Shown here one piece after another: positions 14,401-27,200 of a DNA stretch of 64,000 bases. A program made the translations under genes and the position numbers. The notes under the pieces are model-generated. The model was given only the letters and a program-made list of their open reading frames with translations. It was not told the origin of the DNA and made no database searches. The DNA comes from Verrucomicrobiota bacterium (GTDB lineage Bacteria; Verrucomicrobiota; Verrucomicrobiia; JAWXBN01; JAWXCD01), in the NCBI GenBank assembly GCA_034440535.1, contig JAWXCD010000003.1:2717-66716 (forward strand), in the 5' to 3' direction. Positions within the stretch are counted from its first letter, which is position 1, and the number at the start of each line of letters is the position of its first letter.

Positions 14401-15988
14401 TTCGATCGAAGATTTAGCTGAACTTATTCATGACCTTAAAAACGCAAACCGCGCAGCAAGAATTAGTGTTAAATTGGTTTCTGAAGTAGGCGTCGGAACA
14501 ATTGCAGCGGGTGTAGCAAAAGCGCATGCTGACGTCATCCTGATCAGTGGTCACGATGGTGGCACGGGCGCCTCACCGTTGTCTTCGATTAAGCATGCGG
14601 GAATTCCATGGGAACTGGGTCTTGCGGAGACGCACCAAACTCTCGTTTTGAACAACCTCCGGAGTCGGGTGGTTGTTGAAACAGACGGCCAGCTTAAAAC
14701 CGGAAAAGATGTGGTTGTTGCCGCTTTGTTGGGCGCAGAAGAATTTGGCTTTGCCACAGCACCCTTAGTAGTGCTCGGATGCATCGTCATGCGTGTTTGT
14801 CACTTGAACACCTGCCCTGTCGGTGTAGCGACTCAAGATCCAAAACTTCGGGCCAAATTCATGGGAAGTCCTGATCATGTGGTCAATTTCATGCGTTTTA
14901 TCGCCCAAGAAGTGCGTGAACTCATGGCTCAACTCGGCATTCGCACGGTCAACGAACTTATTGGGCGCACGGATTTACTGAAGGTAAACAATGCAGTCGA
15001 CCACTGGAAAGCTAAGGGTCTGGATTTGAGTAAGATTCTGTATCAGCCTAAGTCAGGACCAGAAGTTGGTCGGTATGCCCAAGTCGAGCAGAATCATGGG
15101 CTGGATAAATCCCTTGATCTCACGGTGCTCCTAGAGAAGTCTAAACCTGCTTTAGAACGCGGTGAAAAGGTCATCATCGAAAGCCCAGTCAGAAATGTGA
15201 ATCGCGTGGTGGGCACGATTCTCGGCAATGAAGTCACTAAAAAATACGGGGCCGCAGGTTTACCAGAAGATACCATCCAACTGAAATTAAAAGGTTCAGC
15301 TGGGCAATCACTGGGCGCGTTCATTCCCAAGGGACTTTCAATTCAACTCGAAGGAGACGCCAACGATTACGTGGGTAAAGGCCTGTCGGGCGGTAAGATT
15401 GTGATCTTTCCTCCTAAAGGTTCATCGTTTGCCCCAGAAGACAATATTATCATTGGTAACGTCGCGTTTTACGGTGCGACAGCGGGCGAAGCCTATATTG
15501 GCGGAATGGCCGGGGAACGGTTTGGCGTGCGTAACAGTGGCGTAAGAACGGTTGTCGAATCTGTGGGTGACCACGGTTGCGAGTACATGACCGGCGGCCG
15601 CGTTGTGGTTTTGGGTAATACAGGACGCAACTTCGCTGCGGGTATGTCCGGGGGCATTGCCTACATCCTCGACATTGACGGGAATTTTAAAATCAAGTGT
15701 AACACCCAAATGGTCGGACTCGAAAAATTGGTGTCTCAATCAGAAATCTTGGAAGTCCGGGGCATGATTGAAAAGCACGTTCATTACACCGGCAGTGAGC
15801 GGGGTAAAAACATCCTCAAGTTATGGGATGACATGGTTCCCAAATTTGTAAAAGTCATGCCGAAAGATTATAAGCGTATGCTGGAAGCCATTGAGCGCGT
15901 TGAAAAACAAGGGCTTACGGCGGACGATGCCATCATGGCCGCGTTTGAAAGTAACGCCCATGACTTGGCTCGTGCTGGCGGAAACTAA
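11402..15988 (+). CDS. gltB: glutamate synthase (NADPH) large subunit
   Basis: 1528 aa. The N-terminal Ntn-amidotransferase Cys context ([16 protein letters not shown]), the FMN/3Fe-4S central domain and the C-terminal GXGXG-rich domain are all recognisable. ATG at 11402. Confidence 0.95.
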
Positions 15989-20227: not shown

Positions 20228-20703
20228 TACTAATAAGATCCTCGAAGGCTAGTGTAGTCCATCAAACAGAACGTAACTTATCAAATTTCGCCCAGGCCGC
20301 GTTTTTTTGGTGATGGTCAATTGAAGGTGTAATCTTATGGGTGCACAACCCCTTTGGGATTGTGTGTTTGCTGACTTTTACCCCAGTGGCATCTCGTACC
20401 CGATCGACCCTAGACTGTGTGACGAAATCCCTTTTGGGATTCGCTCTCACGTCCTTTCTTCCTTAGTGGGATCAGTGTCTTTAAACGCATAGTTTGTACG
20501 TCCCTTCGGATACGAAGACACGAAAGGGGAAGCAGGACAAAAAAGGATTTCTTCGTGCCTTCGTGTGAGTCTAATTCTTTCCCTCATTTCCCTTGTAGGT
20601 GCGGGGACACCGGCCGAGTATGCGCCAGCATACGATCGCCTGAGAATAAAAGGCTGAAGGAAAAGCCTAACACAGGAATGAAACCCGTGCTTTTTCACGT
20701 GGA

Positions 20704-20810
20704 AAATGGGTTTCCCTACCCGTTTTCCTCCGTGTTTCCACACACGGGAGTTTAAGGAGTGTATAAGCCTCCTTAAAAAGGCCACGGGTAAGGAGACCCG
20801 TGCTCCACGT
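20704..20810 (-). repeat. ~105-nt structured inverted-repeat element, copy 1 (conserved 5' and 3' arms, variable central hairpin)
   Basis: It aligns to 24160-24261. The 5' arm gggtttccctacccgt pairs with the 3' arm acgggtaaggagaccc. An inner conserved hairpin ccgtgt-ttccac-acacgg is present. The central hairpin is ttaaggag/ctccttaa. The element ends 7 nt before the TAG stop of the 719-aa gene. Confidence 0.6.
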
Positions 20811-20816
20811 CCTGAT

Positions 20817-22976
20817 CTATTTCACCGTCACACGACCGTACTTGGAGGCGTCGAGGTAGGCGGGTTGGCTCTGGAATGTCGAGCCGCGAAGCGAAACGCC
20901 CTTCTCGTCGAATGTGGAGAGCGTGAACTCGATATAAAATTGCTTGGTGAGAGGGTCAATTTTAAGACGTGATAACGGGATCACAGCGAAGAGGCGGTAT
21001 CCGTAAGGTGCGTTTTCGGAGGTAATCTGGATGTCCGCCGCTGAAGTGGGGACATCACCCTCCTTGTAGAGTGCCCGCGCGGTTTGTTTGTCGATACCAG
21101 GAATTAAAAAGGCCTGGCCTGTGGGCTTATCGGGTTTGAGAGCGGTGAATATTTCAAGATCCGATCCTTCCCAGGGGTTTGCGTTCAACTGAGGATTTTT
21201 ATCGTTTACCTTAGCGGCGACAATCAGATGTCCGGCGGCCAATCCAAAACGCACCACACCCAGAACTTCATTCTTGTTGTTATTATAAATGGGGAGCGCA
21301 GGAGAATCTTTAAGGAACTCCTGAACATCTTTCAGTTCAGGAACAGTGGGGACCATGGCAACAGTCACTTTCCGGGAAAGATCGATGTGTCCAAGCACCG
21401 CCTGAGTAGATCCTTCCTTTTTTAACCGGGCCCGCACGGCAAGGCGCGATTCCATCTGCGCCACATCAAACTCATAATTCATTCGTTGGCCCGCGGCCAA
21501 GGTCACCTGCTTTCTGCCCCTCTCGAAGGAAATTCCGGCATCGTGAGGGAGCATATCCAAAACGACTTCATCAGATATCGGTTCCTTCCCTTTGTTTTCG
21601 ATGGTCACTTGAACCCGCCCTTTTTCTCCCATACCTTCAGGTTTGCGCAGCCATGACATCGTCAACGTAGTGGGGGACACCTTCACCGCAACTGCGGGTT
21701 CATTATCGCGAATCATCGTTTTTCCACCGCTGCCGTCACGAATACGAACGCCTTGCTTCCCGTTGTTATCACTCAAGATCGCATGCACAACGCCGGGAAG
21801 CACATCGATGGAAGGTTCGGTCGTATGGAAAGTACACCCCCGCACCTGCAATCGACCCGCCGAGGCTTCCACAAGCGCGCGCCCGGAATGTTCTCCGCGC
21901 GAACTCGAAAAATAACAGTTCTCCAGGGACACATACCCTTCGGGAGCGCTCGACACGACACATTGTTCTGACGGACCCCAGAATGCACAATTAGAAAAGC
22001 GCACTGAACCGGCGCAATTCGGTCCAATCAAAACCTGAATCGGGTCGGGGCCGCTCATGGAAACGAACTCGCCATTAGATATCAAAAGGCCCATCGGTTG
22101 AATATCTTCAACCACAATTGCGTTCCATGTCGCATCGGCACCGATTCCAGAAAACTGGCCGTTACAAGCCCCGTTTGCGGTTTTTACAAATTTATATCCG
22201 ACACGCGCCGGGAACACGAAGGTGTTGTGAACGTAAGCCCAATCAATTCGCCCGAAAGTAAAGGCCTCAAAGTTTTTCGACATGTAATCGAACACCAAAT
22301 CCCAATCTCCACCGACCCCCGAATGAAACCATTCACAATGGAAATGCACGTTATCGAGGCGCCCGATGTCCACGCAGTTGTCCACATAAAATCCACGGCG
22401 CAATGCGCATCCGTACACATTGCGAACCTGAAACCGTATATTAACTTCCGGACCCACGCGGATTGCATTGTAACTGTTGAAGAGGGTGATGTCTTCGAGC
22501 CGGTTATCACGTCCCTGCAGATGAAAGGTCCAAGGATAAGGTTGAATATCTTTAGCGACCTGATCGGGATAAAGAACGGACAGACCAATAACCGCCGCGT
22601 TGTTCCCGAGTTCGAAAAGGGCGGGACCGTCCTCGCGGCCGCGTCCCGCGGTGGACATGACGATGGTTCCCACTTGCGGATCTGAAAAGTGATTAGCCTC
22701 GTTAACCCCCACCAGAGCGACACCTTCAGGAATTCGCAAACTTCCTGAGACCAGAATTTTACCAACGGGTAACTGCACACGCCCGCCTCCCTTTTTCCGG
22801 ACCTCGTCCATGGCCTGTTGAATGGTTTGAGTGTTATCAGTTTTCCCATCAGCAACAATCGACGCGGCTTTCGAAAGACCACAGGCCCTGAACTTGAAAC
22901 AAGGCTTACAAAATATCCAGCAGGCAGCGGCCAGGACAACAATGACGAGTAAGATGGCGATGAGTTTTACTTTCAT
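20817..22976 (-). CDS. secreted right-handed parallel beta-helix protein (pectate-lyase-superfamily-like N-domain) with CBM9/DOMON-like C-terminal domain
   Basis: Signal/anchor MKVKLIAILLVIVVLAAA. The segment ADGKTDNTQTIQQAMDEV...GGGRVQLP is typical of the Pectate_lyase_3-type N-terminus. The C-terminal ~190 aa are CBM9-like. ATG verified. Confidence 0.65.
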   Translation of the reverse strand: MKVKLIAILLVIVVLAAACWIFCKPCFKFRACGLSKAASIVADGKTDNTQTIQQAMDEVRKKGGGRVQLPVGKILVSGSLRIPEGVALVGVNEANHFSDPQVGTIVMSTAGRGREDGPALFELGNNAAVIGLSVLYPDQVAKDIQPYPWTFHLQGRDNRLEDITLFNSYNAIRVGPEVNIRFQVRNVYGCALRRGFYVDNCVDIGRLDNVHFHCEWFHSGVGGDWDLVFDYMSKNFEAFTFGRIDWAYVHNTFVFPARVGYKFVKTANGACNGQFSGIGADATWNAIVVEDIQPMGLLISNGEFVSMSGPDPIQVLIGPNCAGSVRFSNCAFWGPSEQCVVSSAPEGYVSLENCYFSSSRGEHSGRALVEASAGRLQVRGCTFHTTEPSIDVLPGVVHAILSDNNGKQGVRIRDGSGGKTMIRDNEPAVAVKVSPTTLTMSWLRKPEGMGEKGRVQVTIENKGKEPISDEVVLDMLPHDAGISFERGRKQVTLAAGQRMNYEFDVAQMESRLAVRARLKKEGSTQAVLGHIDLSRKVTVAMVPTVPELKDVQEFLKDSPALPIYNNNKNEVLGVVRFGLAAGHLIVAAKVNDKNPQLNANPWEGSDLEIFTALKPDKPTGQAFLIPGIDKQTARALYKEGDVPTSAADIQITSENAPYGYRLFAVIPLSRLKIDPLTKQFYIEFTLSTFDEKGVSLRGSTFQSQPAYLDASKYGRVTVK

Positions 22977-22988
22977 AATTTTGCTTTT

Positions 22989-23359
22989 TTAAGATCTTTT
23001 TTCTTTGCTGTACCTTGGACATTTTTCACGGCTGGGCGCTTTTGCCCCGGTAACGTCTACCCCAAAATTCGAACCAATGGAAATCCCTGAATAAGGAACG
23101 TGATGAATGTGGTTTCGAGCCACGATGGTTTCGCGGGCCAGGGACACGAAAATGGGAACCACCCCGTAACTGCTCCAACCCATGTTATAAATATGGTTAT
23201 CTGAAATAACCGTACCTGTCGGTAAAACTGACGGATCTGAAGCTGTCGTCGCGTTCCCCCAACAAAAACCCCGCCGCGTGTCGATACATGAATTTCCGAT
23301 TCGGTAATCAGGTTAGAAAGCAGAAACACAACGAGTCCCGCGCGAATGATGATAATCAT
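22989..23359 (-). pseudogene. possible frameshifted remnant of a small secreted beta-helix-repeat protein
   Basis: Two overlapping minus-strand ORFs in different frames. 23057-23359 begins with a signal-peptide-like MIIIIRAGLVVFLLSNLI. 22989-23183 contains beta-helix-like ARNHIHHVPYSGISIGSNFGVDVTG. They could be joined by a single frameshift. Confidence 0.2.
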
Positions 23360-23446
23360 TTAACTTGCGCGAAACCATACCGAATCATATTCCCTTTTCA
23401 AGTCCAAAGTCTCCTGGGTCGATATGAGTACTCCGCAACCTCGTTA

Positions 23447-23680
23447 CTTGGTCATATCATTAAAACGAAGTCGAAACTCCCTCGGGGTCATTCGTTTCTT
23501 TTTGGAAAAGAGGCGGTTGAAATTTGAGAGGTTTGAAAAACCACAGAAAAAGGCGATCAAAGTAATCGAGCGCGACGACTCCAGAAGCTGCTGACAGACG
23601 TGGTTTAATTTTAAATCGATGACAAAATCGGTAAAGATCGTTTTGGAATGACGTTTAAAATACGTTTCCGTCCTCCTCTT
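23447..23680 (-). pseudogene. AraC/XylS-family transcriptional regulator remnant (C-terminal HTH only, no start codon)
   Basis: The minus-strand frame between two in-frame stops translates to KRRTETYFKRHSKTIFTDFVIDLKLNHVCQQLLESSRSITLIAFFCGFSNLSNFNRLFSKKKRMTPREFRLRFNDMTK. This is a textbook AraC second-HTH signature (IA..CGFS..S.F.R.FK...G.TP.EFR). There is no Met or alternative start and no N-terminal domain. Confidence 0.55.
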
Positions 23681-24159
23681 TTACCTTTCTTAAATGGAAA
23701 CACTTTCTCACAAACAAACCGTCATTCAACCCTCGGCCTCGGAAATTCTTTCTTTTCGCAATAATGGCCACGTCAAAATCAAAAATGTTTTTTCAAAAGA
23801 CGAGATTCAGGGGTGGGAACCTAAGATAACACGTGCCTATTGGAACCTGCCAACAAGGACCAGCAAAACGATCTCAAGTCGTGGATGCCAGGGGCTACCG
23901 TCAGAAAACCCGGGCCCTGTTGCTCTTCCCCGGTTTTATATTGAAACTAAACAGCCCCTGTTACCCCGAAAAAACCTGTCACGTAACAACCGGGGGCCTT
24001 TATGTGGCCCTTCAGAATGATGGCCAACAACCCGCCATAGTCGCCTTGACCCTCCACAGCCAAACCTTCACCGGCGAAGTTCCGCAGCAGTCAACACGCG
24101 CCTGGTGGTTCGACCCGGAATCCAATAAAACCGAGACTTTGGTTTTTTAAAACCTAGAA

Positions 24160-24261
24160 CATGGGTCTCCCTACCCGTGTTCCTCCGTGTTTCCACACAC
24201 GGCTATCCACGGGGGGTAAGCCCCCCTCAAAGCACACGGGTAAGGAGACCCGTGCTCCACG
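24160..24261 (-). repeat. ~105-nt structured inverted-repeat element, copy 2
   Basis: It has the same arms as copy 1 and the same inner hairpin. The central hairpin has a different sequence but an equivalent structure (ggggggtaagcccccc). The 3' boundary lies 1 nt from the TAA stop of the giant gene. Confidence 0.6.
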
Positions 24262-27200
24262 TTAAGTCGTTTTGCGTGTGCGGGATTTCATCCAGGCGAG
24301 TGCAGGTTTGCGACCATAGAAGGCAAGAACGATTAAAGTGAGGATGATAACCATCCACTCTTCGGGTTCAGGTGTTTCATAACCCGGTGTCGCGTAAGCA
24401 TAACCGGTGTTACCAAGGCTATTATTGGCAATTCCAGTGATGTAATCGGATGTAGAATTGTTATATCCAACCCGTGTAGCGACTAGGTTGCCAGAAAGAT
24501 CCGCGCCCAAACCGGTGTTCAGTGCTGAGTACTGTAAATTGACGACTCCGCTGGAAGGATCCCAGAAGTTTTGGAAATTGGCTTGCCAACCCGCGCCACC
24601 GCCAAAGTCGAGGGCAAACTGGCTAGTCCCTCCAATCATGGTCAGATCGTAATTAGCCCCGTCATTGTTGTATGTGAATACATCGACCACAGCCCCTAAG
24701 TTATCGTAAAGAACCATATAATCCGCGTTGCTGTCCGGGTTGCCCATAAACCCATAAGCGTCCGTCCAGTTATTGAAATAACTATCAGTTAAGTAACCCG
24801 AATCGGCATTAGCGACGATCAGAGTACCGCCCTGACCGCTGACAAGATTTGTATAAGGATCGCCGGACTGAGTCCAGCTACTTCCAGTTTGTGTGGTGTA
24901 TGTCACGCTTGGGCGGAAAGGACGTCCACCTTGAACACCTCCGTTATGTTCGTCAGCACCGAAAGTAAACGAGTCAGAAGGGGCACCTACCATACCCATA
25001 ACCAAGAATTCGTTGTTTGTGCCTCCTAAGTTACCAGCGCCGGAGATACTAAAGTTGGCTGCAAGATAACCGTTCTGATCGTATGCACGAACTTTATATC
25101 CAGAAAGATCCAAGCCTCCTCCACTGCCCAAAGTCTGGGAATGGGCGAGGTTCGTTCCAAGTTTGAGTTCGAGCCATTCATGATTCTTGTCAACTGCGTT
25201 TGCTCCCGCATTGACCATAAATTCGTTGAAGTAAACAGACCCGCGATTTGCTGAGGCTGTTCCCGAACCAATCCCGGTCCCTGGCTGAACCTGTTTACGC
25301 ATATCGTTAGTGACTACCGCGCCCGTTACGTTTTCCACAAAACCTTGGTTAACCGACAATGCCATTGCAGCACTCGCAGCGCCTTGGGCGGAATAGAATC
25401 GGCCACCTTCGCGCACATCATTTAAGCCTGTACCGTTAGTGCCAGTACCGGTCGAAGTAAGGTTGTTAATTGTGTTTACGTTAGCGATTGTTCCGCCATC
25501 AGCCAAAACGTTAGCCGCCACGTTATCGGTCTTTAATCGCCCATTCAACACTGACACTGTCGAATAAAGGGCGTTCGTAAGAACCGCTGTGTAGCCTTGA
25601 CCTGAGCCGACATTTGTCACAATAAAGACCTCCGAGTGGCCCAAAGTACCCTTGAAGGTGGAAGCTGAATCCAATACAGGACTATCCGTGACTTGAACTT
25701 GAAGGTTCACAGATCCTGAAACCTGATTTGTCGTTACAGCCCAGTATGATCCGTCCGCTGCGATGACTTGTAAGTTAGCACCGCCCAAATTGGTTACGTT
25801 CCCGAACATCCCAGTTTGTTTAGTGACGTCGAAACCATTAATAAGCCGGTAGGTGTTTGTATCGGTTGTCGGTGTGGTATTGAGATAAAGTGCTCCACCG
25901 AAGACCAAGTTACCACTCGAACCCGCACTCGAAATAACGTCACGCACGTTTGTGGTAGCGCCGATGTTGAAGTAATTTGTTGAGCCCGCAAGACTCACGT
26001 AGTTAAACCCGCTCCCTACTGTCAGTGTCCCAGTATTCGTTGTTGTCCCTGCGCTGACAGTACCTGCGTTTGTTAAGTGTCCAAAGATAGTTGAACTGGT
26101 ACCGATCAGCAGACCGTTACTCTGGACGTTAAGACCATCGGAGAATCTGGCATTAACCGATTGAAGATTCAAGGTGCCCCCATTTGATAATACCACTTGG
26201 CTGCCATTTGTGAAAGTAACGCCACCAGCCCCGGTTAAAGTGAGTTGTTTATTCGATACGTTCACTGTGCCCGCGAGAACAAGCGTGCTCCCAGCAGCAT
26301 CCCAGGTCTGGGACGCGCCAACAGTCACTCTATTACTAATGAATTGGGCGACGCTGCTATTCTGGTATATCCCCACTCCATTTGTCCCCATGATAGTCAA
26401 GTTGCTGCCACCGATTGCATGGGTGCTCATTCCGGCAAGGTTACTAAAGGTCATCTGCGAAATTGAATAAGGAGTATCAATAATCGAATTTGTCTTCGTG
26501 CTATTAGCCGCAATGATAATACTTGCTGTTCCATCATTCACTGGAGCCGCGTCAAACACCCAGTTAACCCCTGTTGACCAGTTGCTGTTTCCCGTTCCAT
26601 TATTTCCATCCCAAATATAGGGCGCTTGTGAGAATACAAGATTGGTCAACCACACATCGTTTGCAATATTCAGGATCTGACCACCAAAAACGTTAGCCCC
26701 TTGGAAAACAAATCCGCTAAAGTCGTTTGAACTTCCAGCCCACGTAGTGTTATCAAATAAACGGAATCCAGCGGTGGCGAGCGGGGAATAATTAAATGTG
26801 AAATCAAGGACACCTCCGCCAAAGAAGGTTCCATTTACCGCGACGTTATCAAAGGACGCTGCACTGTTGAAATTAAAGAAGTTGGTAGAAGTCGCACCCA
26901 AAATCATGTTGCCATTGATCGTGAGCGTTCCCACATCAGCGCCCGATGAAGTGCCAAGATTCATGTTACCACGATTTGTCACATTACCCGCGATGGTTGC
27001 ACCAGCCGCGTAAATGCTCGCGTTTGTATTGACGAGCAATCCCCCGGTAAAGGTATGAGCGGCTGTCGTATCCACATAAAGGCGGGCATTTTGTGTCCCA
27101 CTACCCACCGTAAATGTGCTGCCCGTATAATTCATCCCACCGCCACCAATGATCAAGGTGCCGTCTTGGTGGCTAATCGAGTTATTCGCTTTGACCACGA

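Follow-up and report, generated by a model that had tools for sequence, protein, structure and literature searches.

Two intergenic palindromic elements of a Verrucomicrobiota bacterium as probable inverted doublets of RAYT-associated REP units

The DNA described here is a stretch of 64,000 nt (the window) from a Verrucomicrobiota bacterium (GenBank assembly GCA_034440535.1, contig JAWXCD010000003.1, positions 2,717 to 66,716 of the forward strand). It carries two copies of a palindromic element of about 108 nt each, copy 1 at 20699-20808 and copy 2 at 24154-24260, both of which are intergenic, have the same orientation and lie just past the stop codon of a gene read from the minus strand. The gene upstream of copy 1 (20817-22976) specifies a 719 aa protein with a pectate-lyase-like fold, which appears at NCBI as hypothetical protein SGI71_00345 of a Verrucomicrobiota metagenome-assembled genome (MAG). 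Its stop codon (TAG) is at 20817-20819, and the GTGG tetranucleotide that forms the head of copy 1 starts 8 nt after it. Upstream of copy 2 is a giant, repetitive open reading frame (ORF) of 7598 aa (24262-47058), taken from the ORF list and found to contain internal repeats; its stop codon (TAA) is at 24262-24264, and the GTGG head of copy 2 starts 1 nt after it. The features described below make it very probable that the two elements are inverted doublets of repetitive extragenic palindromic (REP) units, that is, hairpins of the REPIN or 'HH dimer' type, of a family found in Verrucomicrobiota-like genomes and associated with the REP-associated tyrosine transposase (RAYT).

A direct-repeat search paired 20697-20747 with 24152-24202 (51 nt, 90% identity) and 20777-20810 with 24229-24262 (34 nt, 94% identity). 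The original prediction, made from the letters of the window, had described two copies sharing a 5' and a 3' arm, and pairwise alignment bears this out, the 3' arm being identical at 27/27 positions and the 5' block at about 39/41. Even with up to 3 mismatches, neither arm has a third place in the 64 kb window, and chance alone would give none. The arms of each copy are inverted repeats of 26 nt (20699-20724 with 20783-20808, and 24154-24179 with 24235-24260), so that the element is longer, and its arms more extensive, than the approximately 105 nt and 16 bp outer stem first proposed; the outer stem itself does fold. Both copies, on either strand, are predicted to form a long outer stem around two hairpins, with minimum free energies (MFE) of -61 (plus) and -60 (minus) kcal/mol for copy 1, and of -59.1 (plus) and -72.8 (minus) kcal/mol for copy 2. 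The z-scores of the whole-element folds range from -6.6 to -8.1, and 0/200 shuffled sequences folded as well. An argument that the arms of copy 2 pair better when read from the minus strand, the strand of the adjacent genes, did not hold up. The core arms of this copy contain one mismatch that becomes a wobble pair on the plus strand and one that does so on the minus strand, a hand count of independent arm differences over both copies gave three in favor of the minus strand versus two for the plus strand, and the MFE favors the minus strand in copy 2 only.

Each arm is in turn a small palindrome, CACGGGT-N6-ACCCGTG, with GTGG on its outer side, which makes the element an inverted doublet of hairpin units rather than a single two-armed fold. 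Read from the minus strand, the stop-proximal arm is GTGG-AG-CACGGGT-CTCCTT-ACCCGTG, and this well-preserved unit has the same sequence in copy 1 (20783-20808, minus strand) and copy 2 (24235-24260, minus strand). The distal arm is an inverted, decayed copy of the stop-proximal one, with 5-6 mismatches. In copy 1 it is a degenerate partner unit on the plus strand (20699-20724, GTGGAAAATGGGTTTCCCTACCCGTT) that differs from the window REP at 6 positions and pairs with 20783-20808 as the outer stem of the fold; its counterpart in copy 2 (24154-24179, plus strand, CTAGAACATGGGTCTCCCTACCCGTG) is partly degenerate, with 5 mismatches. Adjoining copy 1 is a third, degenerate REP unit (20671-20698, minus strand; CACAGGAATGAAACCCGTGCTTTTTCAC on the plus strand), the local alignment of which to the REP scores 23, a value reached by 0/2000 shuffles, and copy 1 is therefore a small cluster of three REP units.

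The unit recurs outside the window. A scan of a genome collection, made with a pattern containing the window-specific loop (TAR) and not the family consensus, returned one Opitutae MAG only, in which two doublets lie 360 nt apart and have a common spacer (about 25/29 positions by eye). A metagenome scan with CACGGGTNNGGAGACCCGTGC retrieved at least 119 stretches (loci, designated below by an L and a number). From 157 cores, the 24 nt consensus of the unit is GTGG-CACGGGTC-TCCN-GACCCGTG, a GT(G/A)G head followed by an 8 bp stem with a 4 nt loop. Its borders are sharp: the three head bases that were not fixed by the search pattern (G/T/G) are 94–97% conserved, and the information content just outside the 24 nt is near zero. 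Covariation is evident in the unit hairpin, with 92.9% of cells paired over 63 distinct units. Changes on both sides of a pair were found in 19 cells versus 4.0 in shuffles (reached in 0/500) and 1-7 in slid controls; an example is the change from C-G to U-A at pair 7/22, seen in nine units. An independent count also shows the covariation. The most common arrangement of units is the head-out inverted doublet, 73 of which remained after self-overlap artefacts had been removed, with spacers that start at 4 nt, have their mode at 10-11 nt and a tail to 83 nt. Tandem pairs and single units are also present, and other contigs carry 2-6 units. By the calls of a crude gene caller based on third-position G+C content (GC3), 62/101 elements are intergenic, versus 17% under random placement, and 51/59 lie downstream of at least one gene.

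A link to a transposase was provided by tblastn, with an E. coli RAYT sequence used as a probe only, which pointed to ORFs in L014, L093 and L108. All three ORFs match Pfam Y1_Tnp, and their scores against the NCBIfam model NF047646 ('REP-associated tyrosine transposase', cutoff 80 bits) are 89.5 bits for L014, 82.9 bits for L093 and 53.9 bits for the truncated ORF of L108. The L093 ORF (762-1493) lies between doublets at 706-779 and 1419-1514, and that of L108 (2013-2615, 65% identical to L093) has a unit (1976-1999) on one side and a doublet (2797-2856) on the other. In L123, from a Verrucomicrobia MAG, a RAYT gene at 2178-2828 (69% identical to L093) is flanked by 2029-2112 and 2830-2923. 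The exact unit thus brackets 3/3 of the retrieved RAYT loci of the L093 clade. At E<=1e-20, 959 homologs of the L093 protein were found, from sources named Verrucomicrobia, Opitutae, Opitutus, Phycisphaeraceae and Terriglobia, and these carry the JGI name 'REP element-mobilizing transposase RayT'. Homologs at 57–58% identity, on Phycisphaeraceae and Terriglobia contigs, have on either side units that are related to this one but distinct from it, GTAGCACGG(C/G)CATCCTGGCCGTGC and GTGCCACGGGCATCCTGCCCGTGCTCC, which fits a picture in which REP unit and RAYT enzyme would be diverging together. The L014 ORF (307-828, minus strand) is a distant second RAYT, only 26% identical to the L093 clade; a GTGG doublet is found at a distance of 1.8 kb but does not bracket it, and the enzyme presumably serves another REP family in its genome.

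More complex arrangements occur at some loci. At five or more of them, a GTGG doublet is nested within an inverted pair of another, GTAG-tagged unit, GTAGGAGCCTGCTTGCAGGCGA, the members of which are about 96 nt apart (L019, 601-717; L034, 7856-7973; L045, 5031-5148; L116, 23-140; L119, 375-491). This second family has 21 units at 16 loci. A long spacer in L075 (213-343) contains two extra hairpins with the family loop but other stems, GGACGATC-TCCC-GATCGTCC and GGCCCGTC-GGGA-GACGGGCC, which have the look of REP variants with swapped stems, in a cluster of four units.

The arms in the window are statistically recognizable members of this family. A covariance model (R1) built from units of other loci only, with no window sequence included, matches the stop-proximal arms at 20783-20806 and 24235-24258 with 27.4 bits (E=7e-5). 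The distal arm of copy 2 is matched at 24160-24179 (18.6 bits, E=0.012), and that of copy 1 weakly (9.4 bits, E=3). Since the host is represented by a Verrucomicrobiota MAG, it also fits the range of the family. The next R1 match in the window (14559-14580, GTGGCACGGGCGCCTCACCGTT) lies in the glutamate synthase gene, where it encodes GGTGASP; it is not a REP, and matches of this type are a predictable false positive of scans with the REP unit. The integron attC site, defined by R''/R' core sites (RYYYAAC ... GTTRRRY) at the 3' end of a cassette near an integrase or cassette array, was considered and rejected by eye, as GTTAAGT follows copy 2 only (copy 1 has GTCCTGA) and the 'cassette' would be a 22.8 kb gene. 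A CRISPR reading was likewise rejected by eye, on sequence and arrangement.

Several observations weigh against placing the window elements in the REP family. Their units carry 2 extra nt between GTGG head and stem, their CTCCTT loop shortens the stem to 7 bp, and one arm of each doublet has 5-6 mismatches. In the 64 kb window, tblastn detected no RAYT gene, and neither mismatch scans nor an unfiltered covariance-model search detected a further REP unit. Adjoining sequence of that organism (about 18 kb) likewise contained neither a RAYT gene nor a further REP unit; in all, approximately 82 kb of its genome has yielded five units, which lie no more than 3.6 kb apart. An empty orthologous site was not found for comparison because the 719 aa protein has no close ortholog, its next best match being 59% identical over 54% of the length. 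Finally, structured spacers of 55-58 nt are atypical for the family: their length falls in the upper tail of its distribution, and 14/15 of the other long spacers are not significantly structured.

These spacers (58 nt at 20725-20782 in copy 1; 55 nt at 24180-24234 in copy 2) each hold a conserved and a variable hairpin. On their own they fold with -20.0 kcal/mol (z=-3.5) in copy 1 and -20.8 kcal/mol (z=-3.75) in copy 2. The first 23 nt or so are identical between the copies and include the hairpin CCGTGT-TTCCAC-ACACGG, which is found at 20730-20747 and 24185-24202, as had been predicted. The variable hairpin is at 20751-20777 (TTTAAGGAG...CTCCTTAAA) in copy 1 and at 24211-24226 (GGGGGG-TAAG-CCCCCC) in copy 2. 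While each copy does have such a central hairpin, the earlier view that the two centers are unrelated in sequence needs revision: beyond the identical part, the spacers are about 59% identical in a hand alignment, and a 15 nt block, TAAGCC[T/C]CC[T/C]T[A/C]AAA, aligns between them (p=0.011). Two of the six central stem pairs that are shared in the hand alignment differ as A-T versus G-C. Within the copy 1 spacer is a stretch, CACGGG-AGTT-TAAGGAG, with similarity to the first part of a REP unit (p=0.0035), and judging from this likeness the spacer may itself be derived from REP material. The inner-hairpin motif CCGTGTTTCCACACACGG was found in no other locus among about 850 kb of family loci, apart from two contigs that duplicate the window.

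The closest known relatives of such elements include the REP/BIME (bacterial interspersed mosaic element) sequences of E. coli and the REPINs (defined in PMC3337134) of Pseudomonas fluorescens SBW25 (Bertels & Rainey 2011, PMC3116915, PMC3337134). In common with them, the present family has a short, imperfectly palindromic unit headed by GT(A/G)G, inverted pairs that form one long hairpin, an extragenic location that is mostly at 3' ends, no target duplication, and a RAYT gene bracketed by units. It differs in host (Verrucomicrobiota of the Planctomycetes-Verrucomicrobia-Chlamydiae (PVC) group here, Proteobacteria there) and in unit sequence. The window copies also depart from their own family, which typically has a 10-11 nt spacer, in their 55-58 nt structured spacers and a head displaced by 2 nt. 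According to Di Nocera et al. (2013, PMC3733652), eight phyla have GTAG-tagged REPs, which are highly enriched in Opitutus terrae (Verrucomicrobia), where the tag is GTGG in most units of one family; dimers with the tags outside ('HH') are the preferred type, typical spacers are 20-100 bp long, and some of them carry small stem-loops, two in an Agrobacterium family. The O. terrae families described there (GTAG-17 to -19 in the supplement, 'GTAG-20' in the main text) resemble the present one in their Verrucomicrobia host, GTGG tag and HH dimers, and some of their units are intragenic. The peptides GTGVPPV and WHGRPAR, given there as products of intragenic GTAG-19 units, would back-translate to GGCACGGGCGTGCCGCCCGTG, with the head and outer stem GTGGCACGGG...CCCGTG in common; the inner stem and loop appear to differ, being GGGTC-TCCN-GACCC here versus roughly GGGCG-TGC-CGCCC, in a comparison that runs via back-translated peptides. 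The CGTC-3 dimers of Agrobacterium tumefaciens, as presented in the same paper, also have two small stem-loops in the spacer and form a branched hairpin, but they belong to the CGTC-tag superfamily and another phylum, and their stem-loops are at the spacer ends, 20-23 bp apart. The literal unit sequence was in no paper reachable by full-text search, which gave unrelated primer matches only.

A wider comparison is with the insertion sequences of the IS200/IS605 family. Their transposase TnpA, a Y1 enzyme of the HUH type, recognizes single-stranded DNA hairpins together with a nearby tetranucleotide. RAYT belongs to the same enzyme superfamily (Pfam Y1_Tnp), and target duplications are absent in both cases; unlike IS200/IS605 elements with their subterminal hairpins, the window copies encode nothing between their ends, and these ends are inverted copies of one unit, not a distinct left and right end. 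Rho-independent terminators and stabilizing hairpins of 3' untranslated regions (3'-UTR) share with the window elements the position of a GC-rich hairpin directly past a stop codon. The stop-proximal unit of copy 1 is also followed on the minus strand by GCCUUUUUAA, a T-run that gives it a terminator-like look, and a further terminator-like hairpin is found on the same strand at 20668-20651. Copy 2, in contrast, has no T-tract, and the structure is far larger than a terminator and has a sequence common to a dispersed repeat family.

Readings other than REP doublets were weighed against these data. Classical miniature inverted-repeat transposable elements (MITEs), being deletion derivatives of a DDE-type insertion sequence, would have terminal inverted repeats and target-site duplications, and the imperfect 26 nt terminal inverted repeats, the length of about 108 nt, the intergenic location and the presence of two copies would suit them. 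However, neither copy has a target-site duplication (the only 4-5-mers that match belong to the palindromic ends of the element), every terminal repeat forms a GTGG-headed hairpin of its own, the unit also occurs alone, in tandem and at spacings of 4-83 nt, and the associated gene is a Y1/HUH RAYT rather than a DDE transposase, so that we regard a MITE origin as very unlikely. Of the REP/MITE-like mobile palindrome that was among the first candidates, the REP half is retained, the arms being RAYT-associated REP units, and the plain MITE is not; target-site duplications, put forward as a mark of the latter, are missing at both copies. It is also extremely unlikely that the arms are paired operator sites, at which a dimeric regulator would bind the CACGGGT-N6-ACCCGTG palindromes and loop the DNA between genes. 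Each arm does present a dyad-symmetric 20-mer, and the pair is about 60 nt apart. These sites, however, are at the 3' ends of genes and not at promoters, the same unit is spread over the 119 or more unrelated metagenome stretches and brackets RAYT genes, its conserved GTGG head is asymmetric, and the covariation of its stem indicates that structure has been kept, not sequence.

The remaining alternative is that selection has kept a structured RNA, whether or not on a REP scaffold, in which the spacer hairpins would be the functional part; as a 3'-UTR module, it might stabilize or terminate the transcript, stall ribosomes, direct processing or give rise to a small RNA derived from the 3'-UTR. 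This reading would accommodate the common orientation of the copies with their heads 1 and 8 nt past sense-strand stop codons, spacers that are far more structured than their shuffles and more structured than 14/15 of the other long family spacers, the combination of one identical hairpin with one that differs by two A-T versus G-C pairs, and the T-run after the stop-proximal hairpin of copy 1. On the other hand, the covariation amounts to two pairs in two sequences, and template switching in DNA palindromes also produces compensatory changes; the arm mismatches have no consistent strand bias by folds and hand count; copy 2 is without a U-tract; and the inner-hairpin motif is missing from the other family loci, about 850 kb of sequence. 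A search of Rfam gave no match in the window at the gathering threshold, and nothing overlapping the elements at E<=5. Stem-loop spacers are, moreover, already known in REP dimers (PMC3733652). We therefore consider this explanation improbable. The suggestion of a selected RNA fold matching no known family is not supported, as the class to which the elements belong, GTAG/GTGG-tagged REP dimers, some with structured spacers, is described there. The finding is real but ordinary: a known class of bacterial repeat, and no new RNA family.

With the elements taken as REP doublets, their origin can be outlined from what is known of IS200/IS605 elements and RAYTs. The RAYT would bind the hairpin as single-stranded DNA and cut at or near the GT(A/G)G head, spreading both units and doublets. 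Copies would arise by the enzyme acting in trans, through chemistry of the IS200/IS605 type that leaves no target duplication. The window copies, one arm of each having decayed, have the appearance of ageing, non-autonomous relics. Their place on the sense strand, 1 and 8 nt past stop codons, suggests that they are probably transcribed as 3'-UTR hairpins, with predicted energies between -60 and -73 kcal/mol, that would act as a barrier to 3' exonucleases or promote termination and, so close to the stop codon, could interfere with the terminating ribosome. The REPs of E. coli stabilize the mRNA upstream of them, and ribosomes stall at those that lie within 15 nt of a stop codon (Liang et al. 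2015, as cited in PMC12306157).

The positions 1-8 nt past the stop codons, the structure of the spacers and the two compensatory pairs would still allow an RNA-level role to be layered on the REP doublets. In its specific form, exaptation of the doublet into a 3'-UTR RNA module, the arms would serve as a clamp presenting the two spacer hairpins, of which one is invariant and the other covaries; we think this unlikely. Were it so, the module would couple translation termination, formation of the transcript 3' end and mRNA decay for the giant surface-protein-like gene and the pectate-lyase-fold gene, and a shared protein or RNase would recognize the invariant CCGUGU-GUGGAA-ACACGG hairpin. The structured spacers near stop codons are, to this extent, a modest lead for the exaptation of REPs at the RNA level. 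If the elements are simply REP doublets mobilized by a RAYT, the rest of the MAG would hold tens of intergenic units and doublets and one RAYT gene bracketed by GTGGAGCACGGGTCTCCTTACCCGTG.

To our knowledge, REP/REPIN-RAYT systems have been studied almost only in Proteobacteria. The present family and its RAYT clade are widespread in metagenome contigs of Verrucomicrobiota-like bacteria, Phycisphaerae and Terriglobia, and they bring the PVC group into the biology of these systems, with a unit hairpin that covaries and with variants of the unit beside diverged RAYT genes. Marking the GTGG-CACGGGTC-TCCN-GACCCGTG family in annotations also keeps its palindromic doublets from being taken for new RNAs, terminators or CRISPR-like repeats.

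Other features were noted around the two elements. The 7598 aa ORF has many internal degenerate repeats, its last 1499 aa are without a Pfam match, and it probably specifies a giant surface or adhesin-like protein. Between the REP doublet of this gene and a 64 aa ORF and the 719 aa gene is a region of about 1 kb (23184-24153) in which no gene has been called in public contigs; its plus-strand ORFs gave no Pfam hit, and its Rfam matches were at noise level only. A decayed gene is one possible reading of this region, a long leader or a promoter region another. A 1590 aa upstream gene in L002 was considered as a biological variant and rejected, as the first 671 nt of that contig fail to align to the window.

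Another motif that recurs between genes is a tandem series of TTCGTG hexamers, spaced by about 10-11 nt and ending in TTCGTGG (for example, ATTCGTGTNNATTCGTGTGATTCGTGGG). It is present in the window at 20511-20527 (minus strand) and 20552-20572 (plus strand), and in L007, L016, L029, L056, L078, L090, L121 and others. Over the loci and the window, the regular expression TTCGTG.{2,5}TTCGTG gave 34 matches, versus 0.67 expected. The inverted pair in the window is 130-190 nt from REP copy 1, and the motif could represent a regulator-binding array or another repeat family.

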